Below are positions 1 to 48,423 of a stretch of 64,000 nucleotides of DNA, one piece after another. Position numbers and translations under genes: made by a program. The notes beneath the pieces were generated by a model, which was given only the letters and a program-made list of their open reading frames with translations, did not search any database and was not told the DNA's origin. Source of the stretch: an uncultured Thermodesulfobacteriota bacterium (GTDB lineage Bacteria; Desulfobacterota; GWC2-55-46; JADFVP01); the NCBI GenBank assembly GCA_964474975.1, contig CAYYUX010000001.1:465-64464 (forward strand). The letters are read 5' to 3'. Positions within the stretch are counted from its first letter, which is position 1, and each line of letters begins with the position of its first letter.

Positions 1-15
1 CGCGCAAAAAAGGCC

Positions 16-1514: not shown

Positions 1515-1525
1515 AAGGAGGGGTA

Positions 1526-2791: not shown

Positions 2792-3883
2792 GTGCGGACA
2801 AGGGCGGCCGTGCTGGAAAAAAAGGACGCTCCACTGGTTATAAGGAAGATAGAGGTGGGCCTGCCGGGACCCGATGAGGTCCTTGTGAAGATGGATATGG
2901 CGGGGCTCTGCAGGAGCGACCTTAACGCCATTACAGGGCATACAAGATACAATATGCCCCTTGTCCTCGGTCACGAGGGTGCAGGCACGGTGGTGGATAC
3001 GGGCCGTAATGTCATTGGATTCAAAAGCGGAGACACCGTGGCCCTGAGCTGGGCCGCCTATTGCGGGAGATGCTATTTCTGCGAGCGCGGTGAGTCGCAT
3101 CTCTGTCATACCGTGGCGTGGCCGCGAGGCAGGGGTTTTCTCCCCGATGGGACTACGAGGTTTCGGGGCGGGAAGGCCGAGAAAATATATCACTTTAACG
3201 GCGTATCGTCTTTTAGCGAGTATACCGTTGTACACAAGACGAGTTGTGTGCCCACCCCGAAGGCCCTGCCTCTCTACGTTAGCGCGGCAACGGGGTGTTC
3301 TGTTGTAACGGCCATTGGAGCCGTATTCAGGACTGCCGGGCCATACCTTAAGAGCAACGCCACTGTTATGGTGGTTGGAGGCGGCAGTGTTGGGGCGGCC
3401 CTGTTGCAGGCCCTGAGGCTCAGGGGCGCGGGCAGGATTATCCTCATTGAAAAAGATGAAAAGAAGTGGAAGGCCCTGCCGGCGGATTACTATGCGCCGA
3501 GTATCGTATCTTTTGATATGGAGAGGCATACGTCAGGTATGGGCGTTGATATATGTTTTGACTGCGTGGCCTCAAAGGAGACTATAGAAAGGTCCATGGG
3601 GGCCGTTAGAAGGGGCGGAACGGTTGTAATGGTCGGCGCCCCTCATCCGAACTTGAAGATAGGGCTTAAGGCCGTTGATTTTCATCTTGAGAAGAGGCTC
3701 ATTGGTTCGCTTTACGGCTCATCAAATCCCCAAAGGGATATGCCCATGGTATTTGATTTTTACAAGAGGGGACTGCTTGACCTTAATGCCTCACGCGCGG
3801 AGACATACGGCCTTGGCGATATAAACCTTGCCGTTGAATCTCTTCGGGAGAAGGGCGGTAAATTCATCATAACATTTGATTGA
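2792..3883 (+). CDS. Zn-dependent alcohol dehydrogenase (MDR superfamily), GTG start
   Basis: Catalytic Zn ligands in CRSDL…GHEGAG, structural Zn Cys cluster CGRCYFCERGESHLC, and Rossmann motif VVGGGSVGAALLQA. Start abuts the previous stop (2789-2791 TAG, then GTG). Confidence 0.75.
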   Translation: MRTRAAVLEKKDAPLVIRKIEVGLPGPDEVLVKMDMAGLCRSDLNAITGHTRYNMPLVLGHEGAGTVVDTGRNVIGFKSGDTVALSWAAYCGRCYFCERGESHLCHTVAWPRGRGFLPDGTTRFRGGKAEKIYHFNGVSSFSEYTVVHKTSCVPTPKALPLYVSAATGCSVVTAIGAVFRTAGPYLKSNATVMVVGGGSVGAALLQALRLRGAGRIILIEKDEKKWKALPADYYAPSIVSFDMERHTSGMGVDICFDCVASKETIERSMGAVRRGGTVVMVGAPHPNLKIGLKAVDFHLEKRLIGSLYGSSNPQRDMPMVFDFYKRGLLDLNASRAETYGLGDINLAVESLREKGGKFIITFD

Positions 3884-3943
3884 AAGGCGGAAGCTCCGTC
3901 ATGAGGACGGTTGATGTTTTGTTTAAAAAAAAGGAGGACTCTT

Positions 3944-4636
3944 ATGAGGTTATTTCTCGATACAGCTGATATTAAAGAGATAAAAAAGGCAAAGTCGTGG
4001 GGGGTGTTAAGCGGTATAACGACAAATCCATCTATAATCGCGAGGCAGAAAAGAGATTTTCTCTCCCTTGCGAGAGAGATATGCGAGCTTGTTTATCCCA
4101 ATCCCGTGAGCCTTGAGGTCGTGGAGCGAGAGGCCGGTCCAATGGCGGATCAGGCCAGAAGGCTCGCCGAGATTTCGCGCAACGTCGTGGTTAAGCTTCC
4201 TGCCAATCCCGCCGGCATGGAGGCCTTGAACCTTATCCGCGGAGAGTCCATAAAGACGAACCTTACCCTTATCTTTTCTCCGACGCAGGCCCTGCTTGCC
4301 GCCATGGCCGGGGCTACTTTCATCAGCCCCTTTATAGGCAGGCTTGAGGACAGGGGCTATAACGGGCTCGGACTTATACGTGAGCTTATGGAGGCCTTTT
4401 CGCACCATGATACGGAGACGGAGGTCATCGCCGCGAGCATCCGTGACCCTCATCAGATAGTGGAGATAGCAAGGGCCGGTGTTCAGATAGCCACCGTGCC
4501 CTTTGTAGTGCTTGAGAAGATGCTCCTTAACAATATGACGGATATGGACCTTGAGAAGTTTTTAAAAGACTGGGAGGAGGTGCCGGGTCGTGAGCATGCC
4601 TTTAGAGAAGATATCAGAAAGGCCGCTGGAGCTTAG
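3944..4636 (+). CDS. Transaldolase / fructose-6-phosphate aldolase family (TalC/MipB-like small transaldolase)
   Basis: MRLFLDTADIKEI…SGITTNPSI…VVKLPANPAGMEAL…TLIFSPTQALLAAMAGATFISPFIGRLED are the hallmark blocks of the about 215-aa transaldolase/FSA family. Good RBS (AAGGAGG) upstream of the ATG at 3944. The tool's 3911 start is probably an artefactual extension. Confidence 0.7.
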   Translation: MRLFLDTADIKEIKKAKSWGVLSGITTNPSIIARQKRDFLSLAREICELVYPNPVSLEVVEREAGPMADQARRLAEISRNVVVKLPANPAGMEALNLIRGESIKTNLTLIFSPTQALLAAMAGATFISPFIGRLEDRGYNGLGLIRELMEAFSHHDTETEVIAASIRDPHQIVEIARAGVQIATVPFVVLEKMLLNNMTDMDLEKFLKDWEEVPGREHAFREDIRKAAGA

Positions 4637-5639
4637 GGCGGCCGTATTTAAGGGACCCGGGGAGCTTGGCATAAGGCGATGTAGCTTCGCGGGGATTAAA
4701 AAGAACGAGGTCCTTGTCTCTATAAAGGCATGCGGTATATGCGGGAGCGACCTTAATATTTTTCACAGGGATCCTCCTGTGCCCATGTACTGGGCGGGCC
4801 ATGAGATAAGCGGCGTCGTCGCGGAGCTTGGCCCCGGTGTAAGGGGTCTTAAGCGGGGTGCCCGCGTGTGCCTGTCTCCCCTTGTGCCATGCATGAGGTG
4901 CCGTCCCTGCAGGAGCGGCCGCGATAATCTCTGCGAGAACTCCACTTTTGTTAGTTTTAACCGGCCCGGCGGGTTTGCCGATATGGTGGCCCTGTCTGCC
5001 TCCAATGTCTTTGAGATACCTGAGGGAATGGGTTTTACGGAAGCCGTGCTCGTCGAGCCCTTTGCCGACGCCCTGCACGCCATATCCGTGGCAGGGAGGA
5101 TGGCAGGTAAAAGGGCGCTCGTAATAGGTTGCGGCACCCTGGGGCTGCTTACCGTCAAGGCCCTTTGTCTTGAGGGGGCTTCGTCTGTGAGCGTGCTTGG
5201 CAGATACCCTTACCAGAGAGAACACGCCCTGTCCATGGGGGCGGATAGGGCCATGGACCCGGAAGACGCCGCCTCGGGACTGCGTGACAAGGGACCCTTT
5301 GATGTGGTCTTTGAGACTGCGGGAGGCTTTGGGAGCGACTCCATTACATTGTCCATAGAGGCCCTTGCGGGCAGAGGCATAATGGTCCTATCAGGCGTGC
5401 ACTACAATACGCCGCGCATGAACCTCAAGGACCTTACAGAGAAGGAGATTCAGATAAGGGGCGCTCAGCGTTACAGAAAGAAAGACTTTAATATGGCCCT
5501 TGCCCATTTTGCCTCTGGAAAGGTAGAGGCGCGGGGGCTGATAACCCACAGAGTGAGCCTTGAAGACATTATGGAGGGCTTTGATATCGCCTTCCATAAA
5601 AAGCAGACAAAGGCCGTAAAGGTGGTGGTATGTCCGTGA
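4590..5639 (+). CDS. Zn-dependent alcohol/polyol dehydrogenase (threonine/sorbitol dehydrogenase-like MDR)
   Basis: CGICGSDLNIF…GHEISGVV catalytic Zn site, structural Zn CMRCRPCRSGRDNLC, and nucleotide fold LVIGCGTLGLL. 5' end overlaps the aldolase gene by about 45 nt; exact start is uncertain (ATG 4590 or 4596). Confidence 0.7.
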   Translation: MSMPLEKISERPLELRAAVFKGPGELGIRRCSFAGIKKNEVLVSIKACGICGSDLNIFHRDPPVPMYWAGHEISGVVAELGPGVRGLKRGARVCLSPLVPCMRCRPCRSGRDNLCENSTFVSFNRPGGFADMVALSASNVFEIPEGMGFTEAVLVEPFADALHAISVAGRMAGKRALVIGCGTLGLLTVKALCLEGASSVSVLGRYPYQREHALSMGADRAMDPEDAASGLRDKGPFDVVFETAGGFGSDSITLSIEALAGRGIMVLSGVHYNTPRMNLKDLTEKEIQIRGAQRYRKKDFNMALAHFASGKVEARGLITHRVSLEDIMEGFDIAFHKKQTKAVKVVVCP

Positions 5640-6880
5640 ATGTAGCAGGGAAAAAAATACTTGTAATATCAGGGGGCGTAGAGGCCCTGCCCATCATTGA
5701 GAAGGCAATTGATATGGGCCTTTATGTCCTTGTATCTGACGGCGATATGTCTGCCCCGGGCCTTGCCCTTGCCCATGAGGCAATTATCGCCAGCACATAC
5801 GACGCGGAAAAGACCCTGGAGCTTGCCCGTTCCACGGACCCCAACAGGCGTATAGCGGGCGTTATATCGGCGGCCGCCGATGTGCCCCGAACCGTTGCCC
5901 TCGTGGCCGATGCCCTGGGGCTCCCGGGGCCTTCACCCCGCTCGGCGCTCCTTGCAGGCAACAAGTTTCTTATGAAGATGGCCTTTAAGGATATGGGGCT
6001 GGCCGTGCCGTGGTTTGCCATGATAAACGGCCCTGACGATTTAAAGGCCCTTACACGCGGCTCGGCCAAGGCCTTTGTTGTAAAACCCGTTGACAGCCGG
6101 GGCGCGCGCGGTGTAATTCGGCTTACGAAGGATGTTGACTGCGGATGGGCCTTTTTTGAGGCAAAAAAGAACGCGCCATCAGGCGCTGTAATGGTCGAGG
6201 AATGGATAGACGGGATACAACTCAGCACAGAGTCCGTTGTGGCCGGGGGGACCGTGGCCACACCGGGATTATCTGAGAGAAATTACGAGTATATCGAGAG
6301 GTTCGCCCCATATGTCATAGAAAACGGCGGCGACCTTCCGGCCCGTCTTGAAGAGCAGACACTCAAGGCCCTCAACGAGCTGATACTCGGCGCGGCGCGT
6401 GCCTTTGGCATTGATGACTGGACCATAAAAGGCGATATCGTCTTGAGCGATAAAGGCCCCGTCATCATAGAGGCCGCGCCGAGGCTGAGCGGCGGTTATT
6501 TCTGCACTCACACCATACCCCTCTCATCGGGCGTCGATATTGTCGAGGCGGCCATACTGCTCGCGTTGGGCATAAAAGTATCTGTAGCGGATTACAACCC
6601 CAAATTCACCAAATTCATCTCGCAGAGGTTCTGGTTCCCCGAAGAAGGGCTCGTTAAAGAGGTATGCCGAAAATCGGGCCTTGAGTCCATGGCCGGGCTT
6701 GAGATGATGAGACTGCATGTGAGAGAAGGCGATACCATCTCTCCCATGGTCTCGCATCCGTCCCGGGCCGGGATGGTTATCACATCAGGGCGCTCAAGAG
6801 AGGAGGCCGTGGCCCGGGCAAGCGATGCCATCTCCGCTGTGAAAATAATAACTGAAAAACCCATGAGGATGGCGCGGTGA
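5630..6880 (+). CDS. ATP-grasp domain ligase (carboxylate-amine ligase type)
   Basis: N-terminal pre-ATP-grasp Rossmann-like region (KILVISGG…), central ATP-grasp fold (…AFVVKPVDSRGARGVIRL…MVEEWIDGIQLSTE…) and a C-terminal substrate domain. Start overlaps the upstream stop (ATG…TGA overlap at 5630-5639). Confidence 0.65.
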   Translation: MSVNVAGKKILVISGGVEALPIIEKAIDMGLYVLVSDGDMSAPGLALAHEAIIASTYDAEKTLELARSTDPNRRIAGVISAAADVPRTVALVADALGLPGPSPRSALLAGNKFLMKMAFKDMGLAVPWFAMINGPDDLKALTRGSAKAFVVKPVDSRGARGVIRLTKDVDCGWAFFEAKKNAPSGAVMVEEWIDGIQLSTESVVAGGTVATPGLSERNYEYIERFAPYVIENGGDLPARLEEQTLKALNELILGAARAFGIDDWTIKGDIVLSDKGPVIIEAAPRLSGGYFCTHTIPLSSGVDIVEAAILLALGIKVSVADYNPKFTKFISQRFWFPEEGLVKEVCRKSGLESMAGLEMMRLHVREGDTISPMVSHPSRAGMVITSGRSREEAVARASDAISAVKIITEKPMRMAR

Positions 6881-8478
6881 TGATAAAGAGAATACTCCTT
6901 CTTCAGCCTAATATGAAGATAGCCACCTCGGGCCAGCGCATAGTCTATCCGCCCATGGGTATCCTCTATCTTGCCTCCGTGCTTGAGGTCGAAGGTTACA
7001 CTGTAGCAATACTCGATTGTCAGACAGAGGGCCTCGATAGAGATGCGCCTCTGCGCGGCGGTTATGTGGATGTAGGCATCCCCATGGAAGAGATTGGCGC
7101 GAGGATTTTAAAGTTCAAACCGGACCTTGTCGGCATAAGCTGTAATTTTTCCGTAATGGTCGGCTCCATGAACGAGACGGCAAGACTCGTCAAGGAGCTT
7201 TTGCCGTCTGCCGTAGTGGTGGCGGGAGGCAATCACCCCACTTCCATGGCAGAGGAGGTTATGGAAAACCAGGCCATAGATTTTGTCCTGAAGGGTGAGG
7301 CCGAGCTATCATTTCCCGCCCTTCTTGCCGCCATGGAAGGGGATTGCGGGGGCTGTGAAGACTGCGATTGCGGCAAGGAGAGCAAAAAGAGTAGCGGCAG
7401 TAATGAGGATAATGATAAGGATGTCAGCGAGCCTCTTGCCTATAGTGCCGTGCCGGGCCTTGTCTGGAGAGATGGCGGCGTTGTGGTAAGTAACGCTCAG
7501 GGACCTTTTATTAAAGACCTCGATTCGTTGCCCTTTCCGGCGTGGCATCTTTTTCCATACGAAAAATATTCCAGCTTCTATAAACCCAAAAAAGTCACCT
7601 GGGGTCAGCCGCAGGCCATGCCCACGGTTCTTACAACGCGGGGATGCGCCGGCACATGCGTTTTCTGCTCAGTACACAGGACCATGGGAAGAAAATTCCG
7701 GGCGAGAAAGCTTGACGAGGTCTTTCGTGAGATAAGGTTTCTTGTAGATACATACAAGATAAGAAAACTCATGATAATAGACGACAACTTCACCCATGAC
7801 AGGGCGCGGGCAAAGGAGTTCTGCGATGAGTTCAAGAGGCAGGGCTTTAATATTGAGATACACTTCATGGTTCTTGCCCTCTGGTGCATGGACGAGGAGC
7901 TTATAGATAAACTCGTGGAGATAGGATGCGTCTCAATGGGTTTTGCCATAGAGTCCGGCGTGCAGGACGTGCTTACAAAGGTTGTTAAAAAACCCCTTAA
8001 GCTTACAAGGGCCATGGAGGTCCTTCGCTACGCAAAGAAGCAGGGCGTCTTTCTTACGGGGACCTTTGTCATAGGACTTCCCGGTGAGACTAAAAAAGAC
8101 ATCAGAAGGTCGCTCTACATGGCGAACTACAGCGGTCTCTTTGATAGCAGAGAGATTTATATCGCTACGCCCCTGCCCGGCACGGAGCTCTTCGGCAGGT
8201 GTGAGAGCGAGGGGCTATTCGCCGAGGGCTTCAGCTACGATAGGCTTGAGGTGGTAAAACCCAATATCACGACAGGGGATTTTACCGCAGGTTACATCGA
8301 GACAATAGTCGAAGCCGACAGGACTCATCACCTTATAAAGTCCAACCCTGCACATGCCCCGCATTATATAGCCGACGTTTGGCGGCGAAAGAGGCCCATT
8401 TTCATGAACGTCCTTTTTGAGACATCAGGCATGTTCATAAAATACGATCTACTTAAGATGAAGGAGAGCTATCCGTGA
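6877..8478 (+). CDS. B12 (cobalamin)-binding radical SAM enzyme
   Basis: N-terminal B12-binding domain pattern (ILLLQPN…PPMGILYLASVLEVEGYTVAILDC…GISCNFSV…VVVAGGNHPT), then a radical-SAM cluster motif CAGTCVFC (CxxxCxxC). Contains an unusual Cys/Asp-rich insert GDCGGCEDCDCGKESKKSSGSNEDNDKD. ATGA overlap with the upstream gene. Confidence 0.7.
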   Translation: MMIKRILLLQPNMKIATSGQRIVYPPMGILYLASVLEVEGYTVAILDCQTEGLDRDAPLRGGYVDVGIPMEEIGARILKFKPDLVGISCNFSVMVGSMNETARLVKELLPSAVVVAGGNHPTSMAEEVMENQAIDFVLKGEAELSFPALLAAMEGDCGGCEDCDCGKESKKSSGSNEDNDKDVSEPLAYSAVPGLVWRDGGVVVSNAQGPFIKDLDSLPFPAWHLFPYEKYSSFYKPKKVTWGQPQAMPTVLTTRGCAGTCVFCSVHRTMGRKFRARKLDEVFREIRFLVDTYKIRKLMIIDDNFTHDRARAKEFCDEFKRQGFNIEIHFMVLALWCMDEELIDKLVEIGCVSMGFAIESGVQDVLTKVVKKPLKLTRAMEVLRYAKKQGVFLTGTFVIGLPGETKKDIRRSLYMANYSGLFDSREIYIATPLPGTELFGRCESEGLFAEGFSYDRLEVVKPNITTGDFTAGYIETIVEADRTHHLIKSNPAHAPHYIADVWRRKRPIFMNVLFETSGMFIKYDLLKMKESYP

Positions 8479-8508
8479 TACAGGGCTTTTTATCGGGGGG
8501 ATTATAAG

Positions 8509-10575
8509 ATGGCGGGGTTGTCTCTTTACGCTCTTTTTCACTGCAACCTTGCCTTCTCGCTTATAGGGAGAGAAGAGTTCAGGGCGGTTATCAAGAGGTG
8601 CTATCGTCCGTTGCTTGAGTTAGCCGGGGAGGGGCTTCCCATTGGTATAGAGATGAGCGCATGGACCCTTCGTCAGGTTCATCAACTTGAGCCTGATTTC
8701 ACAAGGAGGCTCAGCGATTTATGGGGGGCGAAGAGGCTGAGTTTCATCGGCTCGGGTTACGCCCAATCCATAATGCCGCTGATACCGGCAGAGGTGAACC
8801 GCTGGAACCTGAGGCTCGGCAATAAGTACTATGAGCAGATACTTGGCAGGGCCCCGAGCATTGCCCTTGTAAACGAGCAGACTTTTTCATCGGGGCTTGT
8901 AGGCCTTTATAAAGAGGCCGGCTACGAGACCATTATCATGGACTGGAATAATTCATGCCGTCATAAGAATTTTTCAAATCAAAGATTGTACTCTCCTCAG
9001 AGGGCCGCGGGAAGGTCGCCCGGTGAGGAGATAGGGCTCCTTTGGTCTCACTCCATCGCCTTTCAGAAGTTCAGTCGGTGCGTTCACGGCGAGTTTTCAC
9101 AAAAAGAATATATGGATTATCTTCTCTCCCATCATGAAGAGGGCGAGGAGAGGGCCTTTGTCGCCTACTCCAACGATGCCGAGGTCTTTGATTTTTGCCC
9201 CGGCAGAGGGGAGTCTCCGCGAGGCGACTTTGAGAGGGTAAGGGAGCTGTTAAAGGGGATAATGGACGAGAAGAGATTCGTCCTCTTAACACCTGAGGAA
9301 ATTTTAAATAAATTCAAGCCAGACCCATCTGCCGGACCCATGAGACTTGAGTCCGTTGAGACCCCCGTGGTCTCCAAGAAGCAGGAGAGGTATAACCCCG
9401 TCAGGTGGTCTGTAACGGGAAGGGACAGCGCCCATATAAACGCGCGGTGTCATACTTTGTATAAAAGGCTTGAGGCAATCTTCAGAGATGGAGGCGTAAA
9501 AGAAAAAGATATATTACGTGAAAAACTCTGCGAGTTCTGGGGCTCTGATTTCAGGACAAATACCTGCGACGACAAGCTCCGGTACTTTAACGAATCCATG
9601 GGGTGGCTGAGTCTTGAGACGGAACGCCTCCTGAGAGAGGCAGGGCTTGATGTGACCGAAGCGCTCCGCCCTTCCGAAGTATTCAGCGTTACAAAAGAGA
9701 GGGCTTCCGCGGGCATGGTCTTATGCGGCGCGGGTCTTTGCAGAGGGCCGTGGCCGGGGCAGTCTGTCAGGGGCTTTAACGCACTTGAGGTGGACGATGA
9801 TAAAAGGCGGGTGACTATCCGCGCACAAGAAGTGGAGCTGACCCTATTAAAAGACAGGGGGCTGGCCCTTTCTTCGGCGTCCTTTCCGGGGATTTCGGAT
9901 AAAGCTCTACTCGGCACCCTCGGCCACGGGTATTTTGATTCCATTGAACTCGGCGCGGATTTTTTTTCCGGCCACCTTATACATACGAGCCGGGACGGGG
10001 TAAAGACTACGGATCTTTGCCCCGCGCCTCACACTATCAGGGAAGATAGCGGCGGGCTGAGTATCTCCTCGGACATCGAGACACCCATAGGCCTCCTTGA
10101 AAAGACTTATCATATTCCGCGCCGCGGGGCGGAATTCTCCCTTACTTACAAGATAAAGGCCCCGGCCCTTCAGGCCTCAAGCCTCCGTCTCGGCATATTT
10201 ACCTTCATGCCCGAGGCATTTGATGTAGATGAGCTTTGGTTTGAAACGGTAAACGGCGGAATGGGGCCTGAGAGGTTTTATCTGAAGGGGCACAGGCTCT
10301 CTCACGACGAGCCCGTGAGCCCGGCCATCTCGGCATCGGGATGCCTCGGAGCCACAGAGGGATGGGTGGCCTTTGGCGATACAGAGAAAAGTCTTATCAT
10401 CAGCTCGGAGAGGCGTTTTGTACACACTGTACCCATGATAAATTACAGGGAATCCGGTGACAAGTTTTTCCTTCGCCTCTATCATTCCGCGGGAGAGCTT
10501 GATGATACCTCGTACTGGCTGTGGCGCGGAAGCAATGAAGTAACATTTATCATAAGGGCCAAGGGTCCGGCGTGA
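8509..10575 (+). CDS. Large (688 aa) protein with an N-terminal glycoside-hydrolase-family-57-like domain; catalytic role uncertain
   Basis: N-terminus 'LYALFHCNLAFSLIGREEFRAVIKRCYRPLLELAGE…IIMDWNN' parallels the GH57 'hNHQPxxNF…FEEAYEKCYxPxLExL…VIVDDYHF' blocks. The His-Gln-Pro signature is replaced by His-Cys-Asn. The remaining about 450 aa are unassigned. Fold similarity was judged by eye only. Confidence 0.4.
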   Translation: MAGLSLYALFHCNLAFSLIGREEFRAVIKRCYRPLLELAGEGLPIGIEMSAWTLRQVHQLEPDFTRRLSDLWGAKRLSFIGSGYAQSIMPLIPAEVNRWNLRLGNKYYEQILGRAPSIALVNEQTFSSGLVGLYKEAGYETIIMDWNNSCRHKNFSNQRLYSPQRAAGRSPGEEIGLLWSHSIAFQKFSRCVHGEFSQKEYMDYLLSHHEEGEERAFVAYSNDAEVFDFCPGRGESPRGDFERVRELLKGIMDEKRFVLLTPEEILNKFKPDPSAGPMRLESVETPVVSKKQERYNPVRWSVTGRDSAHINARCHTLYKRLEAIFRDGGVKEKDILREKLCEFWGSDFRTNTCDDKLRYFNESMGWLSLETERLLREAGLDVTEALRPSEVFSVTKERASAGMVLCGAGLCRGPWPGQSVRGFNALEVDDDKRRVTIRAQEVELTLLKDRGLALSSASFPGISDKALLGTLGHGYFDSIELGADFFSGHLIHTSRDGVKTTDLCPAPHTIREDSGGLSISSDIETPIGLLEKTYHIPRRGAEFSLTYKIKAPALQASSLRLGIFTFMPEAFDVDELWFETVNGGMGPERFYLKGHRLSHDEPVSPAISASGCLGATEGWVAFGDTEKSLIISSERRFVHTVPMINYRESGDKFFLRLYHSAGELDDTSYWLWRGSNEVTFIIRAKGPA

Positions 10576-10599
10576 CCCCCTTAAGAGACGGGAGTTGAG

Positions 10600-12516
10600 A
10601 TGAGTATATTCGAGAAAAACTACGATGTAATCGCGCAAAAAGACAGTATCCTCGCCGATAGGCTCCGTGCCTTTAGCGGCGAGAGGGCCTCTGTCGAGCG
10701 GGCCGCCAATAAAGAGTTTGTACTGCGCTTCAAGGGCCGTCTCTTTAATAGCGCTTACGGGCCATGGAAGGAGGCATCCCTGCAGGCAGAGGAGATAATG
10801 AACAAAAAAGCGGACTGTGTGGCCCTCTTCGGCCTTGGTTGCGGCTACCTGCTTCGCACCCTTTTGAAGTTGGAGACAAAAAAGATATTTATTTTCGAGC
10901 CTTCCATGGAGATACTTACAGGCGTGCTGGAAAAAATAGACCTTAGCTCTGAGCTGAAGGGGCAGAATGTTTTCCTTGCCAATTATATAGGGCCTTTTGT
11001 CTCATGGATTCAGCGCTTTACCGAGGGCTTCGATAATATCATAGGCTACCATACCATGCCTTACAGATTGACCTTTCCCCATGAGCTAAGGGATTTCATG
11101 GTTAAGATAGAGAACGCCCATACCTCGCAGAAGGTCGGCATAAAGACGGAGATAGATTCAAGGGTGGACTGGCTGAAAAATTATTTTTCCAATCTAGAGT
11201 CATTCTTTACTTATCCCTCAGTAGACGTCCTTACGGAGAGGTTAAAGGGAATTCCCATGATCATCGTAGGCGCGGGGCCGTCTCTCAGTAAAAACGCCGC
11301 CCTCCTCGCGGAAATAAAAGACAAGGCCTTTATAGTATCGGCCATTACGGCCTATAAGAGCCTCTTGAAGTTAGGCGTTGTCCCCCATGCCGTGATAGCC
11401 GGGGAAAAGGTAGACCTTGACGAGTATTTTGACGGCGGCGAGCCCGATAGAGAGATTCGTCTCATCTTATCAGAGGTCTCTCACCCGGCAATGTTCCGTA
11501 GAGAGGCCAGCGGTAAATTTATCTTTTACAGCCCCTATATAGCCCTCAGCCTCGAGCAGGCAAGCCTCTGGGGAAGCTCCTCCTTTGTATCAATAGGAGG
11601 GTCTGTAACTACGGCCATTTTTGACATGGGCGTCAAGTTCGGCTGTGACCCCATTGTTTTTATCGGACAGGACCTTGCCTTTGAGAATGGACATAGTCAC
11701 GCGTCGGGAGGTGTTTATGACGGGCAGAGGGTCGTTATTGATAAAGAAAGGGGGGTTGTTGAGGTAAGAGAACACTATATTTCCGGCCATAAGCGCACTA
11801 TGCGCCACAAGCTTCAGTGGCTTAAGGATATTGAGGGCAAACCTGTTGCGAGTAAATATGACTGGGTTACCTTTCACCAGTGGTTTGAGCGTTATATGAT
11901 TCTTCTGAAAGAGGAATACCCCGATATACGTGTCGTTAACGCCACTGAAGGCGGCGCCTTTATAAAGGGCATGGAGCATAAGCCCCTTAAAGAGGTTATC
12001 TCAAAATATATCCTTGATCCCGAGCCCGTGGAGGATATTCTTGCTTCTGCGGCGGCCATGCGTCCCGAGGTGGATACGGCAGGTCTTGTAGAGGCCTTTA
12101 AGAGACTGGAGCTGAATGTAGCCCTTGTCTCAAAACTTTCATCGCAGATTGTAGCAGAGGCGGAAAAGATGCGGACAGCCTTTCAGATGAAAGGCCTTCG
12201 CACAGAACTTGGCGATAACCTTGGGAAGATAAGAAAGAAGGAGAAAAAACTTTTTAATGCCGCCCGCAAGGTAGCTTTTCTATGGGAGGCCCTTGTGGAG
12301 TACACCTACGACCTTAAGAGCTACCTTAAAGAGGCAGTTGACCGCTCCACGGAAGATCAGTTCAGTAAAGACATCGAGCGTACGATACGCACATACACGG
12401 AGGTGAGAAAGAAATGCGATCTCTTCGCCCCCATGGTGCGTGAGGGCCTTTCGTATGTAAGGCTTCTTCATGAGAGGTCAGCTCAGGACCGGCCCGTAGC
12501 CGTTAATCATAGATAA
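10600..12516 (+). CDS. maf: Motility accessory factor (Maf family, DUF115/MptE-like) - flagellin nonulosonic-acid glycosyltransferase
   Basis: Characteristic Maf N-terminus MSIFEKNYDVIAQKDSILADRLRAF. Central MptE-like domain with the IVGAGPSL motif. About 640 aa in length, located immediately upstream of the flagellin locus. Confidence 0.75.
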   Translation: MSIFEKNYDVIAQKDSILADRLRAFSGERASVERAANKEFVLRFKGRLFNSAYGPWKEASLQAEEIMNKKADCVALFGLGCGYLLRTLLKLETKKIFIFEPSMEILTGVLEKIDLSSELKGQNVFLANYIGPFVSWIQRFTEGFDNIIGYHTMPYRLTFPHELRDFMVKIENAHTSQKVGIKTEIDSRVDWLKNYFSNLESFFTYPSVDVLTERLKGIPMIIVGAGPSLSKNAALLAEIKDKAFIVSAITAYKSLLKLGVVPHAVIAGEKVDLDEYFDGGEPDREIRLILSEVSHPAMFRREASGKFIFYSPYIALSLEQASLWGSSSFVSIGGSVTTAIFDMGVKFGCDPIVFIGQDLAFENGHSHASGGVYDGQRVVIDKERGVVEVREHYISGHKRTMRHKLQWLKDIEGKPVASKYDWVTFHQWFERYMILLKEEYPDIRVVNATEGGAFIKGMEHKPLKEVISKYILDPEPVEDILASAAAMRPEVDTAGLVEAFKRLELNVALVSKLSSQIVAEAEKMRTAFQMKGLRTELGDNLGKIRKKEKKLFNAARKVAFLWEALVEYTYDLKSYLKEAVDRSTEDQFSKDIERTIRTYTEVRKKCDLFAPMVREGLSYVRLLHERSAQDRPVAVNHR

Positions 12517-12691: not shown

Positions 12692-13297
12692 ATGACGGAT
12701 ATATACCTTGACGATACGAGGCTGGAGATAGGTGGCGCTGACGCCGCATCTACTATCGGCGATATTATTGTGGCTGTGGAAGAGGACCTTAAACCCTTCC
12801 GGCGTTTTATTCAGGAGCTATGGCTCGATGGCTTTAATGCGGGTATCGGATGGAAGGATACCGTGGCCGTCAATGAGCCTTTTGAGCTATATGGAGAGCT
12901 AAAGCTCTTTAGCGGCGATGTAGACCCCATAGTCCTGAAAGGGATTTATACGGTGAGTGAGTATATTGATTTTATTTGTACTCTCATTAACGATACCTCT
13001 TCCGCCCTCAGACGCGGTGCTGGAGAAGTAGACAACCTCCTTGGAGCGATTATCGAGAGTACCGGAGAGGTTATCAGAACCATGGATTCACTCTACAGGT
13101 GCGGTCTATCCTATGAGATAGATATATTCAGAGAAAATCCCATATCCTGTTACGAGGCAATTTTAAGGAATATGTCGGAGCTGAAAGACGCCCGTTTGTC
13201 ACGGGACAATATCCTGCTTGCCGATATACTGCAGTATGAGCTCGGTCCGCTACTGATACAGATGGAGGAAAAGGTCTTTTACCGAAAAGATATGTGA
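12692..13297 (+). CDS. Hypothetical acidic protein (about 200 aa) between maf and fliC
   Basis: Intact ORF with a reasonable RBS (AAGGAG at about 12678) before the ATG at 12692; alternative upstream ATG at 12659. No motif recognised. Sits directly upstream of the fliC sigma-28 promoter. Confidence 0.4.
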   Translation: MTDIYLDDTRLEIGGADAASTIGDIIVAVEEDLKPFRRFIQELWLDGFNAGIGWKDTVAVNEPFELYGELKLFSGDVDPIVLKGIYTVSEYIDFICTLINDTSSALRRGAGEVDNLLGAIIESTGEVIRTMDSLYRCGLSYEIDIFRENPISCYEAILRNMSELKDARLSRDNILLADILQYELGPLLIQMEEKVFYRKDM

Positions 13298-13305
13298 GCG
13301 GTAGC

Positions 13306-13332
13306 TAAAGGTTCTTACCCAACTGCCGATAA
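13306..13332 (+). promoter_or_regulatory. sigma-28 (FliA) class-III promoter for flagellin
   Basis: TAAA(13306-13309)-N15-GCCGATAA(13325-13332) is an exact match to the TAAA-N15-GCCGATAA consensus, about 120 nt upstream of the fliC start. fliA is encoded in this window. Confidence 0.6.
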
Positions 13333-13453
13333 GGTTATTAAGGGTCCGGTGGCATATATGGCGGGAAGGGGGGGTCTCATAGAGATGCCTTTTGCCATAC
13401 GGACAAATAATTATCTGGCAGGGATGCCGTAAAACACTAAGGAGGGTAAGAAC

Positions 13454-14296
13454 ATGGCTTTAATTATCAACACCAACATTGCGTCACTACTCGCGCAACA
13501 GAACATCAGTTCATCGAACGCCCAGTTGAAGATAAGCGTTCAGAGGCTATCATCTGGTCACAGGGTCAACAGCTCTGCTGATGACGCCGCGGGGCTTGCC
13601 AGGGCGGATCAGCTTCGTAGCCAGTCCAGGATGATTCAGGCCGCACAGCGGAACGTCAATGACGGCGTCAGCGCCATGGAAATCAGTGACAAGGCCGCTG
13701 AGCAGGTTACGAACATTATCACAAGGATGGGCGAGCTTGCCGCGAGCGCCTCACAGGGTACTCTCGATAGCAATACAAGAACCTTTTTCAGTGATGAGTA
13801 TGACAAACTGATCAACGAAATAGACAGGATAGCGGGTACAACAGAGTTTGGAGGTTTTAAGCTCCTTAACGGCTCCATAACCTCGCTGACCATGTTTATC
13901 GGGTTCAAAAATTCATCGGATAACCAGTTAAGCGTCAGTCTTGTAGCCCTTACAAGCGCCGGCGCTACAGGTAATGTGGGCCTCAGCCTCTCTGCCGGTG
14001 CTCTCTCAGGTGTAACGGGCGCGTTGAACGCCCTTGACGCCGTAAGCGTAGCGCTCAACAGAGTCAATAGCGCAAGGGCCGTATACGGTGCTACAACGAA
14101 CAGGCTTAACGTTGCGCTTAATAACCTTCAGGTTACATTCACTAACTTCCAGGCCGCTGAATCAAGGGTAAGAGACGCTGACTTTGCCTCTGAGACGGCT
14201 ACCTTTACAAAGAACCAGATAATGGTTCAGGCTGGTATTTCTGTTCTCGCGCAGGCTAATACACTGCCGAGAAATGCGCTACAGCTCTTGAGATAG
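13454..14296 (+). CDS. fliC: Flagellin (short, 280 aa)
   Basis: Canonical N-terminus MALIINTNIASLLAQQN…LSSGHRVNSSADDAAGLA and C-terminus …QAGISVLAQANTLPRNALQLLR. Strong RBS AAGGAGGG upstream. Confidence 0.9.
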   Translation: MALIINTNIASLLAQQNISSSNAQLKISVQRLSSGHRVNSSADDAAGLARADQLRSQSRMIQAAQRNVNDGVSAMEISDKAAEQVTNIITRMGELAASASQGTLDSNTRTFFSDEYDKLINEIDRIAGTTEFGGFKLLNGSITSLTMFIGFKNSSDNQLSVSLVALTSAGATGNVGLSLSAGALSGVTGALNALDAVSVALNRVNSARAVYGATTNRLNVALNNLQVTFTNFQAAESRVRDADFASETATFTKNQIMVQAGISVLAQANTLPRNALQLLR

Positions 14297-14365: not shown

Positions 14366-14440
14366 ATTATGCTGAGCTGTAAACTGTTGGGCCGAGAGGG
14401 GTAAGAGGCGCTTGCCAATTTTTTTTTAATGGAGGACATC

Positions 14441-16190: not shown

Positions 16191-16530
16191 GAAGACGGCC
16201 CGTATGGGCTTGCTGGAGAGATTGCTTGATATCGCGAGGGCCCAGAAAAAGCTTCTCTCAGAGAACCGTCTTGGCGAGCTTGCAAAGACCATGGCCGAGC
16301 GTGATGATGTTGTATCTCGTCTGAAGTCCGCGGGAGCCCCGGCAGGAAAGGAAGAAGGTAATATTCTTAAAAAAATACTGGATTACGACAGTAATCTCAG
16401 AGTCTCTCTTGAAGTTGAGCTTGAGGAAATCCGTCGTGAACTTGAGAAATTATCAGACTGTAATGTGGTTAATAAGGCCTACCTATCCACTCAGGTAAAG
16501 ACGGTAGAGAGGAGTTTACGAAATGGATAA
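16180..16530 (+). CDS. Small coiled-coil protein, FlgN/FliT-like flagellar export chaperone candidate
   Basis: About 116 aa, helical heptad-rich (LLERLLDIARAQKKLLSENRLGELAKTMAERDDVVSRL…), matching the FlgN pattern (LxxLLxxExxxLxxL…K…L…D…L). Position after fliS is typical for fliT/flgN. Start is ambiguous (GTG 16138 or ATG 16180). Confidence 0.4.
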   Translation: MGAEKTARMGLLERLLDIARAQKKLLSENRLGELAKTMAERDDVVSRLKSAGAPAGKEEGNILKKILDYDSNLRVSLEVELEEIRRELEKLSDCNVVNKAYLSTQVKTVERSLRNG

Positions 16531-17107
16531 TGCTAACGAAAGAGACGAGGTGATGTATATGGTCGGCATGATCTCCAATAGCAGGGAATACGTAAGGATA
16601 GATGACAGTATACCTGTTTATTACGTGCTTAAGGATGGCGCCAATATTACGGATAGCTCCGTGAATATTCGTGAATTAAGGCATTTTTCAAAAAAGGTGG
16701 AGGCCATATCCTCAGACGACCCGGAGATGTATTCCCTGCTCTTTGAGATAAACCAGAGGCTCAAGACGCTTATGACCAATGCCGCTACGGAACAATGCTT
16801 TGAGATACCCGAGGCGCGTATAGAGAACATCAGCGGCGGCGGACTTAAGATACTCTGCAACAAGAACTTCAACGAGGGCGACGAGCTTCTCATTAGGCTC
16901 TTTCTGCCAGATCATGCGCAGGATCTTGAGGTAACGGGAGAGGTCGTATGGATATGTGAGAACATCGATGGCGGATACAAGGTGGGAATAAAGTTTGTTG
17001 ATATTGATGAGAGGGCGAGAGAGAGAATAGTAAGATACATCTTCGCCTGGCAGAGACGGATGCTTAGGGCCGGCAGAGAAGCCGGTGGCGCGCAGGCCGG
17101 AAAGTAA
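16523..17107 (+). CDS. PilZ-domain (c-di-GMP-binding) protein, YcgR-like candidate
   Basis: RxxxR (REYVR) and D/NxSxGG (ENISGGG) PilZ signature motifs. Beta-barrel-like C-terminal half (…LLIRLFLPD…EVTGEVVWICE…YKVGIKFVDI…). Encoded convergently with motAB. Confidence 0.7.
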   Translation: MDNANERDEVMYMVGMISNSREYVRIDDSIPVYYVLKDGANITDSSVNIRELRHFSKKVEAISSDDPEMYSLLFEINQRLKTLMTNAATEQCFEIPEARIENISGGGLKILCNKNFNEGDELLIRLFLPDHAQDLEVTGEVVWICENIDGGYKVGIKFVDIDERARERIVRYIFAWQRRMLRAGREAGGAQAGK

Positions 17108-17220: not shown

Positions 17221-18018
17221 CTATTTGAAAAGGCTTTCTTCATTTCCAAGCGAGAATTTTTTCTTTTCCACAAGGATACTCACACGCCTGTTTATGGGAT
17301 CAAAGGTATCCTTGCCGTTCAGGGGCGCTACATCGGCAAAGCTCGAGACTCGGGATATGCGCCGTTCATTAAGGCCGTCACGCACAAGCTCCCTCCTCGC
17401 GGCGTTGGCCCTCTCTGCGGCAAGCTCCCAGTTAGTATGCTCCTTGTTAGCGAACTTGAAGCTGTCCGTGTGTCCCTCTATGGCTATCTGGTTGGGCATA
17501 TCTTTGAGGGTTTCCGCAAGAACTTTTAAGACGTCTTTACCCCTCTTAACGAGCCTGGCTCCGCCGCGTTCAAACATGGGGCTGTCATCAAGGTCCACAA
17601 GCTCAAGCCTTACACCATTGGTAGTGGTAAATATGAGTATCTGTTTTTTCATACTGCTGAGCCTTGTATTAACCGTCTTGGTTATCTGTAAAATGATATC
17701 ATTATTGGATTTCTTTGTGGGTACTGGTTTGGATGAACTCTTGTTTAACATGAGGGGGTTGCCTGACATGACGGATATCCCCTTGCCGCCTCCTGCCTCG
17801 GTACCCTCGAATATGGTGTAGCTTCTGAAGTATTCGGCCATACCCTTCTTGGACTCTATGGACATCATGGCTACAAGCCAGAGAACCATGAAAAAGGCCA
17901 TCATCGCCGTTACAAAGTCGGCGTAAGCAACCTTCCATGCGCCACCGTGATGCCCTCCGCCGTGGCCTTTTTTTATTACCTTTTTTATGATTATGGGTTG
18001 TGTATCGTTGTTGTCCAA
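17221..18018 (-). CDS. motB: Flagellar stator protein MotB
   Basis: N-terminal GGHHGGAWKVAYADFVTAMMAFFMVLWLV plug/TM segment and C-terminal OmpA-like peptidoglycan-binding domain (…IAIEGHTDS…WELAAERANAARREL). Stop-start overlap with motA. Confidence 0.85.
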   Translation of the reverse strand: MDNNDTQPIIIKKVIKKGHGGGHHGGAWKVAYADFVTAMMAFFMVLWLVAMMSIESKKGMAEYFRSYTIFEGTEAGGGKGISVMSGNPLMLNKSSSKPVPTKKSNNDIILQITKTVNTRLSSMKKQILIFTTTNGVRLELVDLDDSPMFERGGARLVKRGKDVLKVLAETLKDMPNQIAIEGHTDSFKFANKEHTNWELAAERANAARRELVRDGLNERRISRVSSFADVAPLNGKDTFDPINRRVSILVEKKKFSLGNEESLFK

Positions 18019-18032
18019 CTCGAATCCTCCTC

Positions 18033-18890
18033 TTATTTTTTCTTCTGCTCCTTGATGGCGTCTTCCAGATCCTTGAAGGATGGCCGAGCGCCGCTGAAGA
18101 CGGTTCTCCTTCCGGCCTCAACGGCCATCTGCGGCGGAAGGTCTTTCGCAAAGGCGAGGAGGGCTATCTTTATGGCCTCGATATACTTCGAATCATCCCT
18201 GTTCTTGTGCTCAAGATGACTGCCGAGGGGGCCTACTACGCCGTAGCTCAGAAGTATGCCGAGAAAGGTGCCCACAAGGGCCGCCGCTACGCTATGACCG
18301 ATGACCTCCGGGCCGTCGCTCATCTTGCCCATTGTGATGACGATGCCGAGTACGGCCGCTACAATGCCGAAACCGGGCAGGGCATCTCCCACCTTGGTAA
18401 TAATCCCCGGGGTTACACCGGCCTCCTCATGGTGGCTGTCCATCTCGATATCCATGAGATCTTCCATCTCCGTTGGCTTGATGCCGATGATAAAGACCCT
18501 CAGGTTGTCGCAGAGAAAATCAAGGGCATGGTGATTCTTCATGATGAATTTATTGGCCTGAAAGATTGCGCTCTCTTTTGGATTTTCAACGTCTTTTTCT
18601 ATAGAGAGGAGCCCCTCCTTCTTTATCTTTGTGAATATGTTGTACAGGAGCGTCAGGAGCGCGATATAGTGACTCTTCTTAAGGGTACTGCCTTTTATGA
18701 TGGCTGGTATGGACTTGAAGACGTCCTTCAGCAGGTTCGATGGGCATGATACGATAAGCGACCCCAGTGCCGCTCCACCGATGGTTATTAGCTCCGCAGG
18801 CTGAATGAGAATGGAAAAGTTGCCTTCCTCCATAGTGTAACCTGCGGCAATGGCGCCGAATACTACGATGAGTCCTATTATTGGCAACAT
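18033..18890 (-). CDS. motA: Flagellar stator protein MotA
   Basis: Four-TM MotA/TolQ/ExbB architecture: MLPIIGLIVVFGAIAAGYTMEEGN…, cytoplasmic loop, and C-terminal …PEVIGHSVAAALVGTFLGILLSYGVVGPL…. Confidence 0.85.
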   Translation of the reverse strand: MLPIIGLIVVFGAIAAGYTMEEGNFSILIQPAELITIGGAALGSLIVSCPSNLLKDVFKSIPAIIKGSTLKKSHYIALLTLLYNIFTKIKKEGLLSIEKDVENPKESAIFQANKFIMKNHHALDFLCDNLRVFIIGIKPTEMEDLMDIEMDSHHEEAGVTPGIITKVGDALPGFGIVAAVLGIVITMGKMSDGPEVIGHSVAAALVGTFLGILLSYGVVGPLGSHLEHKNRDDSKYIEAIKIALLAFAKDLPPQMAVEAGRRTVFSGARPSFKDLEDAIKEQKKK

Positions 18891-26047: not shown

Positions 26048-26452
26048 ATGGATTTTATATTTGACAGGACCATAGATATCCTTGCGAGGACGCTTGATCT
26101 TCGCGCCGCGGAGCATCGGGCCATAGCCTCGAATATAGCGAATAGCGAGACGCCGGGTTATCGTGCAAGGGATGTGGACTTTAGAGACGCCCTCAGCAAG
26201 GCCATGGGGGACTCTGCCTCGGAGGTAAGGCTTGCGGGTACAAATCCCGTACACTTCAGCAGTACGGCTGAGTCCGGGGAGATAAAGATGATGGAGAGGC
26301 CTGTCTCTGACCCTGGTTTTGATGCCAATACCGTGGATATCGAGGACGAGATGGGAAGATTATCAGGTAACTACATGGCCTACAATCTATCGGCAAGGAT
26401 GCTGAGAAAAAAGTTCTCCATATTGATGACAGCCATAAAAGAAGGGAGGTAG
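26048..26452 (+). CDS. flgB: Flagellar basal-body rod protein FlgB
   Basis: MDFIFDRTIDILARTLDLRAAEHRAIASNIANSETPGYRARDVDF is the conserved FlgB N-terminal rod motif (…ANxxTPGY…). RBS AAGAGG 6 nt upstream of the ATG at 26048. Confidence 0.85.
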   Translation: MDFIFDRTIDILARTLDLRAAEHRAIASNIANSETPGYRARDVDFRDALSKAMGDSASEVRLAGTNPVHFSSTAESGEIKMMERPVSDPGFDANTVDIEDEMGRLSGNYMAYNLSARMLRKKFSILMTAIKEGR

Positions 26453-34965: not shown

Positions 34966-35019
34966 GGATATAGTGTAAGGCAGTATTCAAGTGTCAATAA
35001 ATATAAGGGAGGCTCTAAG

Positions 35020-46714: not shown

Positions 46715-47602
46715 ATGAATGAGAAAATAGAGGAGAAGGAGGCCCTTTTCACAGAGGTGCGCGAAGACAAGTCCGGCTCCGGGGATTCAGTTGTGAGGGT
46801 TATATCCGTAACGAGCGGCAAGGGAGGGGTAGGAAAGACCAACTGTGTTGTTAACCTTGCTATATCACTTGCAAGGCAGGGTAAGAGGGTCTTGATACTC
46901 GATGCCGACCTCGGGCTCTGCAACCTTGATGTAATGCTTGGGCTCTCGCCTAAATACAATATCAACCATGTGCTTAGCGGGGAGAAGAAGTTACGGGACA
47001 TTATTGTCACAGGCCCGGCGGGCATAATGGTAATACCGGCGGCATCGGGGATTCAGGAGCTTACGAACCTGACGGTGGAGCAGAGGCTTGCCCTTACATC
47101 AAGCATTGAGAGCCTCGACAAGGATGTAGACATAATGATTATAGACACGGGCGCAGGGATATCGAGTAACGTCATGTTTTTTAATGCGGCGGCTCACGAG
47201 ATAATTGTAGTTGTAACGCCAGAGCCTACTTCTCTTACAGATGCCTACGCTCTGATGAAGGTGCTTATGAAAAATCATGGTGAGAGGAGCTTCAAGCTTC
47301 TTGTCAATACGGCTCGCGGTGATAAGGAAGGAAAAAACATATACAGCATTATCAGCCTTGTGGCAGGGAGATTCCTGAACATATCCCTTGAGTATCTCGG
47401 TTATGTGGCCCGTGATGAGAAGGTTCAGCGGGCCGTGCTTAACCAGCGGGCCGTGGCGGATATGTTTCCAGAGACTTCGGCGAGCCTCTGTTTTAAGGCC
47501 CTGGCCGGGAGAATTGCTGACATGCCTGTAGAGGCCCTGCCAAGCGGGGGAATACAGTTATTTTGGAAGAACATGATTAATATGCAGGATAAGACATTAT
47601 GA
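46715..47602 (+). CDS. flhG: MinD/ParA-type ATPase FlhG (FleN/YlxH)
   Basis: Deviant Walker A (VISVTSGKGGVGKTN), MinD-like body, and C-terminal amphipathic region. Between flhF and fliA as in polar/peritrichous number-control loci. RBS AAAGGGG before the ATG at 46715; tool start 46622 gives an N-terminal extension judged unlikely. Confidence 0.85.
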   Translation: MNEKIEEKEALFTEVREDKSGSGDSVVRVISVTSGKGGVGKTNCVVNLAISLARQGKRVLILDADLGLCNLDVMLGLSPKYNINHVLSGEKKLRDIIVTGPAGIMVIPAASGIQELTNLTVEQRLALTSSIESLDKDVDIMIIDTGAGISSNVMFFNAAAHEIIVVVTPEPTSLTDAYALMKVLMKNHGERSFKLLVNTARGDKEGKNIYSIISLVAGRFLNISLEYLGYVARDEKVQRAVLNQRAVADMFPETSASLCFKALAGRIADMPVEALPSGGIQLFWKNMINMQDKTL

Positions 47603-48423
47603 AAGGACAATTTAATAAAAAAAGGGTGCCTGTAGCAGGGTCTCCGAGGTCAGGGACAATGAAAAGAGCGGTCAGAAAAAAGAAGACAGTTGTGAGACAG
47701 AGCGCGGACCGTGATGCTCTCATGCTTGAGAATGTCAGGCTTGTGAAGATAATCGCCCATCATATAGCGGTTCATCTGCCGTCTCATATAGACGTTAATG
47801 ACCTTATGAGTGCCGGTTCCATAGGGCTCCTTGAGGCCATTGACAAGTTTGACGCCTCAAGGGGTATAAAGTTTAAGACTTATGCGTCGATAAGGATACG
47901 AGGGGCCATTATGGATGAACTTAGGGGCATGGATTGGATGACAAGGTCTATGCGTGAAAGGTCCAATATGCTCAAGAGGGCCTATGGGGAGATAGAGAGA
48001 CGAAAGGGCGGTACTGCCAATGAGGCCGATGTGGCCGCCTTCCTCGGTATTACCGTAGAGGCGTTGAGGGCGCTTCTTAGCAAGGTAAGCGCCTGTAGCC
48101 TTGTGAGTATCGAGGACCTCGTATACGACAAGGAACACAAGCTCGACCTCCTTGAATGTATAGAAGACCCGAAGGGGGCCGACCCCATGGCCTTTGCCAG
48201 ATTCGGCGAGCTGCAATCGACCCTTGCCAATATGATAGACGGCCTTCCCGATAAAGAGAAACTCATAGTATCGCTTTATTATTTTGATGAGCTTACGATG
48301 AAGGAGATAGGTCGCGTCATGGAGATTACGGAGTCAAGGGTCTGCCAGCTACACAGTCAGGCCATGCACAGGCTGAAGGCCCGTATGATGAGGCAGGTAC
48401 ACGAAGAAATGCGGTTGATATGA
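47599..48423 (+). CDS. fliA: Flagellar sigma factor FliA (sigma-28)
   Basis: Sigma-70 region 2 (…LVKIIAHHIA…VNDLMSAGSIGLLEAIDKFD…YASIRIRGAIMDELR…), region 3 and region 4 HTH (…LTMKEIGRVMEITESRVCQLHSQAMHRLK…). Start overlaps flhG stop (ATGA). Confidence 0.85.
   Translation: MKGQFNKKRVPVAGSPRSGTMKRAVRKKKTVVRQSADRDALMLENVRLVKIIAHHIAVHLPSHIDVNDLMSAGSIGLLEAIDKFDASRGIKFKTYASIRIRGAIMDELRGMDWMTRSMRERSNMLKRAYGEIERRKGGTANEADVAAFLGITVEALRALLSKVSACSLVSIEDLVYDKEHKLDLLECIEDPKGADPMAFARFGELQSTLANMIDGLPDKEKLIVSLYYFDELTMKEIGRVMEITESRVCQLHSQAMHRLKARMMRQVHEEMRLI

Follow-up and report, generated by a model that had tools for sequence, protein, structure and literature searches.

Our analysis indicates that the flagellin leader of this uncultured Thermodesulfobacteriota bacterium is probably the site of a checkpoint of the Hag-FliW-CsrA type, at which CsrA would repress flagellin translation and FliW would relieve that repression. 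In the window, by which we mean the whole 64,000-nucleotide (64-kb) stretch of DNA analysed here, the flagellin gene is preceded by an exact sigma-28 promoter match and by a leader that carries a short hairpin with GGA in its loop and, 3' of it, a Shine-Dalgarno (SD) sequence with a second GGA. This hairpin-plus-SD module is conserved among related flagellin leaders and its stem covaries; what is more, fliA is present in the window itself, and csrA and fliW lie side by side in the corresponding region of a sister strain. The architecture and the logic are those of a well-described system and involve no new mechanism, the new part being its occurrence in an uncultured lineage of sulfate-reducer type. 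The features concerned are collected in Table 1.

Table 1. Features of the flagellin leader, its surroundings and the csrA-fliW pair (window coordinates unless a locus is named).
Feature	Position	Strand	Details
Flagellin-glycosylation island	1-12516		PseG-like, methyltransferases, dehydrogenases, ATP-grasp, B12-radical SAM, GH57, Maf
201-aa ORF, no family assigned	12692-13297	+	directly 5' of flagellin
Sigma-28 (FliA) class promoter	13306..13332	+	-35 TAAA 13306-13309, 15-nt spacer, -10 GCCGATAA 13325-13332
5' long imperfect hairpin (element 1)	13344..13404	+	outer helix GUCCG/CGGAC plus GUGGCA/UGCCAU
Hairpin 2, putative high-affinity CsrA site	13416..13429	+	stem UGGCA/UGCCG, loop GGGA 13421-13424
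Shine-Dalgarno, putative second CsrA site	13439..13446	+	AAGGAGGG, GGA 13441-13443
Flagellin gene, 280 aa	13454..14296	+	Pfam Flagellin_N 1.7e-36, Flagellin_C 6.8e-23
Intrinsic-terminator-like hairpin and T-run 3' of flagellin	14400..14426	+	pattern scan
fliA, sigma-28 factor	47599..48423	+	Pfam Sigma70 r2/r3/r4; downstream of flhA-flhF-flhG
csrA, 75 aa	L091 693-920		PF02599; TIGR00202 88 bits (cutoff 70.1)
fliW, 160 aa	L091 920-1402		PF02623; start overlaps csrA stop

The window is occupied by a flagellar and chemotaxis supercluster. The flagellin open reading frame, with a gap of 156 nt on its 5' side, is followed in order by fliD, fliS, a fliT-like gene and a gene for a PilZ protein, then by motBA on the minus strand, sigma-54 activators, fliF through flgE, fliL through flhB, and finally flhA, flhF-flhG-fliA and the che genes. 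The PDB matches of the encoded flagellin are flagellins, among them B. subtilis Hag of the FliS-Hag-FliW complex (6gow), and with this Hag it can be aligned end to end. The terminator-like hairpin 3' of the gene suggests that the flagellin mRNA may be monocistronic; the pattern scan that found this single site gave no more sites than expected from shuffled sequence, which makes it weak evidence. Two further observations concern motility: the PilZ-domain protein (16523-17107, plus strand), adjoining the fliS and fliT-like genes, is possibly a YcgR-type c-di-GMP brake, and there are two separate motA/motB pairs, at 17221-18890 (minus strand) and 55042-56522 (plus strand).

For comparison we could draw on a very close relative and on a broader set of loci. 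Namely, an identical flagellin protein is encoded on the JGI contig Ga0256727_1000002 (181.6 kb), which aligns colinearly with the window at 99.75% identity (51 differences in 20.8 kb) and which we refer to as the sister strain; its 316-aa methyltransferase differs from that of the window at three residues. A scan of GTDB genomes provided flagellin loci of uncultured Thermodesulfobacteriota or 'Deltaproteobacteria' metagenome-assembled genomes, at 58-95% protein identity, together with more distant lineages. A metagenome scan with the first ORF of the window returned distant relatives only (identity at most 39%), and a homolog search with the PseG-like fragment did not return the protein of the sister strain.

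The promoter is the most straightforward part of the leader. The initial annotation had called it a consensus sigma-28 promoter, and it is indeed an exact match to TAAA-N15-GCCGATAA, the sole one without mismatches in the 64 kb; for the pattern TAAA-N15-17-CCGATA, too, the flagellin site is alone in the window. The factor that would read this promoter is encoded in the window, the fliA product scoring 253.8 bits against the FliA_WhiG model TIGR02479 (cutoff 189.6). In relatives L001-L011 the promoter is kept at -148 to -157 from the ATG, 17-18 of 18 positions match across relatives in the region of the -10 box and transcription start, and the layout 3' of the promoter is the same as in the window. 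With the start placed approximately 7 nt past the -10 box, the leader would be about 113-115 nt long. The next best sigma-28-like site in the window, and the single one with one mismatch, is TAAAGTTTAAGACTTATGCGTCGATAA at 47867-47893 (plus strand), inside fliA and approximately 580 nt 5' of the HEAT-repeat/che operon, where it may be an internal promoter or a chance match.

Within the leader, hairpin 2 has five base pairs, namely U13416-G13429, G-C, G-C, C-G and A13420-U13425, and exposes the GGA at 13422-13424. It is present in both the minimum free energy (MFE) and the centroid fold of the leader, and RNAalifold on full leaders recovered it alone. A GGA-loop hairpin had been proposed at 13416-13427; the hairpin is there, but its sequence GGCAGGGATGCC lies at 13417-13428, so that those coordinates were off by one nucleotide. 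Its core, CAGGGAUG (13419-13426), fits CARGGAUG, reportedly the core of SELEX-type CsrA ligands (Dubey 2005); this 8-mer core occurs 12 times in the window and is not diagnostic by itself. The SD sequence AAGGAGGG, previously claimed as the second site, can be read directly in the DNA 7-8 nt 5' of the flagellin ATG. In the window the GGA of hairpin 2 and that of the SD are 19 nt apart; in relatives this distance ranges over 19-27 nt.

It should be noted that, taken singly, such features are not exceptional. If a loose hairpin is defined as four or more Watson-Crick base pairs closing a loop of 4-7 nt that includes GGA, there are 117 of them on both strands of the window, and they turn up in 6 of 56 gene leaders. 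In other words, a GGA-loop hairpin is frequent by chance, and the case therefore rests on the comparison across species. The fold energy of the whole leader is likewise unremarkable (z = -1.35 and -0.63). Rfam gave no match at gathering score anywhere in the window, CsrB/RsmY-type sponges, riboswitches and known leaders included, and the single match to the segment 13280-13480 (E = 9.3) is meaningless; we accordingly rejected a riboswitch or a known RNA family.

Among 108 unique flagellin leaders, 26 have the hairpin at the same position, starting at -37 to -44 and ending at -25 to -30 from the ATG, and nearly all of these belong to the window's own clade or to other non-gammaproteobacterial lineages; the module is also found in leaders of Binatia, Chloroflexota and Nitrospirota. 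For several of the hairpin-bearing lineages, the flanking sequence that was fetched includes csrA and/or fliW (for example, loci L010 and L060). The motif is missing from the flagellin leaders of Methylophaga, Cellvibrio, Methylococcales and other Gammaproteobacteria in the same 108-leader set, and Magnetococcales loci with FliW lack it as well, the latter being a point against the CsrA reading. In the 25 leaders that were aligned, the loop GGA and the GGAGG of the SD are both invariant, the latter being no argument for CsrA on its own, since GGA is part of any strong SD. The stem, on the other hand, occurs as UGGCA/UGCCG, CGGCA/UGCCG, CGACCA/UGGUCG, GGGC/GCCC (GGGCA/UGCCC), CGGGG/CCCCG and, in L021, GAUAGC/GCUAUC. 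In alignment A2 both sides have changed in five of the six pairs (13 cells, many of which come from a few lineages and thus represent a small number of independent events), and the covariation score was reached by none of 500 shuffles. When the 3' partners were slid out of register as controls, 20-44% of positions could pair, as opposed to 78% in register.

Turning to closer relatives, we compared the window with five congeners: from hairpin 2 through to the ATG, identity is 85-98%, compared with 52-64% at the synonymous third positions of flagellin and 49-84% in the remaining, 5' part of the leader; identity above that of synonymous sites indicates that this stretch is under purifying selection. 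A covariance model, R1, comprising the hairpin and the SD, found one strong match in the window (13413-13456, 50.7 bits), the next one reaching 13.6 bits. In 1.22 Mb of related loci it found 27 matches of at least 31 bits, all ending at a flagellin start codon, with the next at 17 bits; most of the 27 are seed sequences, and the informative part is therefore the absence of other matches. The two-site GGA architecture first proposed from the window has in this way been borne out in the relatives, and all computational tests named beforehand gave favourable outcomes. Some relatives have tandem flagellin genes (10001-10834 and 10917-11744 in L010; at 9062 and 10027 in L014), and the second copy has a hairpin-plus-SD module of its own, without the sigma-28 promoter or the 5' hairpin, so that the CsrA-type module appears to travel with each flagellin ORF.

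If CsrA acts on this leader, csrA and fliW should be encoded in the same genome, and they had been expected near flgK/flgL. In the window itself, neither gene was found by tblastn, for which the queries were B. subtilis FliW and the CsrA proteins of E. coli and B. subtilis. The expectation held just outside it: on the contig of the sister strain (locus L091) the order is flgL, csrA, fliW, pseB-like, pseC-like, neuB, pseF-like and then the genes of the window's left end, which places csrA-fliW directly 3' of flgL and, in sister-strain coordinates, approximately 7.1-7.8 kb to the left of window position 1, with only the glycosylation island between the pair and flagellin. The arrangement recurs in L010, a relative at 77% identity, as flgJ-flgM-flgN-flgK-flgL-csrA-fliW, followed by a short island, Maf, a 199-aa ORF and the two flagellin genes. 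Given the near-identity of the two strains, we infer that the genome from which the window comes also encodes csrA and fliW. The best PDB match of the sister-strain CsrA is the FliW-bound CsrA of Geobacillus (5dmb_D), and the protein has a C-terminal extension and retains, within IQEEN, the asparagine aligned with N55 of B. subtilis CsrA, the residue mutated in a FliW-insensitive CsrA (PMC6529632). Its FliW matches 2aj7 (1.6e-15) and 5dmb_A (3.3e-12) in the PDB; it also matches the NCBIfam FliW equivalog models, with scores below their cut-offs.

Some observations on the neighbourhood of csrA-fliW may be added here. Upstream of csrA the sequence is very rich in G and contains GAAGGG/GAGGGAGGAG units in several repeats (L091 492-692, between flgL and csrA of the sister strain; L010 4688-4749; L060 6972-7011), the SD context GCCA(G/U)GGAGGGCG is kept in three lineages, and R1 has a weak match of 12.3 bits just 5' of csrA in L060; together these hint at autoregulation of CsrA. 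The glycosylation island, for its part, is unusually large, spanning approximately 20 kb from fliW to flagellin (window 1-12516 plus L091 1644-9989), whereas the same interval in L010 is approximately 4.5 kb. Its genes include pseB/C-like genes, neuB, a CMP-sugar transferase-like gene, an aminotransferase, two SAM methyltransferases, two Zn-dehydrogenases, a transaldolase-like gene, ATP-grasp, a B12-binding radical SAM, GH57 and Maf.

How does this locus compare with systems that have been studied at the bench? The hag leader of B. subtilis is reportedly governed by a Hag-FliW-CsrA partner switch (Yakhnin 2007; Mukherjee 2011). This switch is also the subject of Oshiro 2019 (PMC6529632), and in the hag leader the sites are BS1 at A51-A55 and BS2 over the SD at C75-G82, approximately 24 nt apart (PMC8523840). 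The window resembles hag in having a sigma-28/SigD-type promoter, a leader of approximately 100 nt and an upstream GGA site combined with an SD site, and the two systems share a CsrA with the C-terminal extension and the N55 asparagine, with fliW beside csrA. They differ in gene order, which is csrA-fliW here, with overlapping stop and start right after flgL, and fliW followed by csrA in B. subtilis (PMC6529632). Unlike in B. subtilis, the approximately 20-kb glycosylation island separates csrA-fliW from flagellin here, and the clade has an additional conserved AAGGAGG loop upstream.

The flaA leader of C. jejuni (Dugar 2016) offers a second point of reference: CsrA binds a pair of ANGGA loops spaced by 21 nt, of which the second lies over the ribosome-binding site (RBS), and 18 nt is cited as the optimal distance between CsrA sites (PMC4894983). 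Here, too, a GGA in a hairpin loop is combined with one at the RBS, at a spacing of 19 nt as against 21 nt, compensatory changes back the structure in both cases, and FliW antagonises CsrA in C. jejuni. The flaA leader is likewise a sigma-28 one, is 45 nt long and has both GGAs in hexaloops (PMC4894983); in contrast, the predicted fold leaves the SD site single-stranded here, the leader is approximately 115 nt long and there is an extra 5' hairpin. Next, the 91-nt fliC leader of C. difficile (Zhu 2021) has sites that were predicted rather than footprinted, BS1 TGACAAGGATGT and BS2 CTAAGGAGGG (PMC8523840). This predicted BS2 is identical to window positions 13437-13446, and the predicted BS1 is similar to the clade consensus CGGCAAGGATGCCG / CGGCAAGGAUGCCG and to the window's UGGCAGGGAUGCCG; C. 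difficile, unlike the window's lineage, is a Firmicute. In short, the leader sequences of the window match sites that have been studied experimentally or predicted, both in Firmicutes and in Campylobacter (PMC8523840, PMC4894983). The nearest studied group is Geobacter, also of the former Deltaproteobacteria: G. sulfurreducens has csrA and fliW, whose products interact (PMC11934962, PMC13407953), and the work in question covers biofilm and electron transfer and itself states that CsrA-mRNA binding and FliC involvement are untested (PMC13407953).

Taking these parallels as a guide, we infer CsrA binding, translational repression and FliW antagonism at this leader, in the following form. FliA would transcribe flagellin late, giving an mRNA with the leader of approximately 115 nt, on which a CsrA dimer would bridge the tetraloop GGA of hairpin 2 and the GGA of the SD. 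CsrA on the SD site would block binding of the 30S subunit and lower flagellin translation; since the SD is single-stranded in the fold as predicted, its occlusion would be brought about by protein and not by RNA structure. FliW would bind CsrA and lift the block while flagellin is being exported, and, once export stops, flagellin remaining in the cytoplasm would sequester FliW.

Could the leader have been conserved for other reasons? Flagellin is a highly expressed late gene in which a consensus SD is expected anyway, and one could argue that the hairpin and the strong SD have been kept independently of CsrA, be it for mRNA stability or processing or as a translation-enhancing leader, a reading with which the unexceptional fold energy of the whole leader and the lack of a match to any known RNA family are in keeping. 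However, a purely structural element needs no invariant GGA in its loop while its stem drifts. In addition, the loop and its flanks match both the SELEX-type core of CsrA and the BS1 that was predicted for C. difficile (PMC8523840), and the motif tracks lineages with csrA/fliW and is missing from gammaproteobacterial flagellin leaders of the same set. We consider a CsrA-independent role unlikely. Similarly, the GGA/SD region could be the target of another trans-acting regulator, either a small RNA or a protein, such as the product of the 201-aa ORF, which is kept directly 5' of flagellin in the clade and has no family assignment. There is precedent for flagellin-mRNA binders other than CsrA, namely FlbT/FlaF, the flagellin-mRNA-binding regulators of Alphaproteobacteria. 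Against this, the 201-aa ORF has no similarity to any RNA-binding family, and the same module occurs in leaders of Binatia, Chloroflexota and Nitrospirota, so we regard a regulator of this kind as quite improbable. The ORF keeps this place in both the sister strain and L010 (199 aa in the latter, with the similar C-terminus ...LEHELAPFL..EKKLF), it has no Pfam or NCBIfam match, its only flag being a precomputed and 'faint' one for DUF8042, and it may be a lineage-specific flagellin-associated factor.

A different possibility is that flagellin expression is controlled through translation of an upstream ORF, running from an ATG at 13358 or 13385 to the TAA at 13430-13432. Indeed, the 24 codons from ATG 13358 to TAA 13432 are open in both the window and the sister strain, with GGUGG 5 nt 5' of the ATG. 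However, most of the substitutions that separate the two strains are non-conservative (R>K, G>E, G>V, I>S, E>N), and both the ATG and the frame are missing in L003, L004, L009 and L013. With the frame not kept beyond the sister strain, we rejected a leader peptide at 13358-13432 (plus strand) as probably not functional, and we give next to no credence to control by this route. The checkpoint operated by CsrA and FliW is thus the reading we prefer.

The leader contains a third element, a long imperfect hairpin in its 5' part, which the initial annotation had not described and which is predicted in both the MFE and the centroid fold. An equivalent long hairpin is predicted in relatives, its apical loop containing AAGGAGG in unpaired form; the apical region there reads GAAAGGAGG or a sequence close to it, enclosed by GGCC...GGCC or GGCG...UGCC. 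While AAAGGAGG is present in the apical loop of all relatives, it is mutated to AAGGGGGGG in the window, where the apical sequence is GGGAAGGGGGGG (13363-13374) and the sole GGA left is at 13364-13366. Eleven substitutions with respect to the sister strain are packed into 13368-13399 (counterpart L001 9915-9946), and despite this patch the promoter, hairpin 2 and SD are identical between the two. The substitutions create a new local stem, GUCUC/GAGAU, and the 3' part of the patch is closer to L005 than to L001, which suggests that the patch may have arisen by recombination. The ends of the helix are conserved in close relatives, where most are invariant, and the alignment fails in distant ones; for these two reasons the structure of element 1 is without covariation support.

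As to its function, element 1, which is degenerate in the window's strain, may serve as an additional CsrA site or as an SD-like sequence that stabilises the mRNA. Pursuing the former option, the flagellin leader would be a three-site CsrA-binding RNA, with AAAGGAGG as the extra site approximately 55 nt 5' of hairpin 2, a proposal that we put forward as a speculative one and rather doubt. If true, however, it would mean that the abundant flagellin mRNA binds more than one CsrA dimer or serves as a CsrA sponge, a role that has been proposed for C. jejuni flaA. The window's strain, carrying AAGGGGGGG, would then be a natural allele without the third site, and flagellin control would vary at the level of strains.

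Elsewhere in the window, two more hairpins deserve mention. Within flgB, at its 3' end, the sequence UCGGCAAGGAUGCUGA (26390-26405, plus strand) folds into a hairpin that is almost the same as the flagellin hairpin of the clade; it is the second-best R1 match (13.6 bits, E = 0.003) and lies approximately 50 nt 5' of the flgC start at 26457, the SD of flgC being AAGGGAGG. It could be a second CsrA target or a chance occurrence. In the fliK-flgD intergenic region (34966-35019), an AU-only hairpin, UAUAUAAGGAUAUA, presents AGGA and is followed by the SD AAGGGAGG before flgD; we regard it as another, though weak, candidate CsrA site.

Earlier work demonstrated the CsrA-FliW flagellin checkpoint in Firmicutes, in Campylobacter and in spirochetes. 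Our results would extend it, by sequence evidence, to uncultured Thermodesulfobacteriota, and the distribution of the motif would widen it to flagellin leaders of Nitrospirota, Binatia and Chloroflexota. On the practical side, the hairpin-plus-SD module, for which there is no Rfam family, appears to have the specificity required of an annotation model (27 of 27 matches in the 1.22 Mb being at flagellin starts), and it supplies precise, testable mutations for organisms of the Geobacter type. Finally, a distribution as wide as this would support the notion that the control of flagellin was the ancestral job of CsrA.
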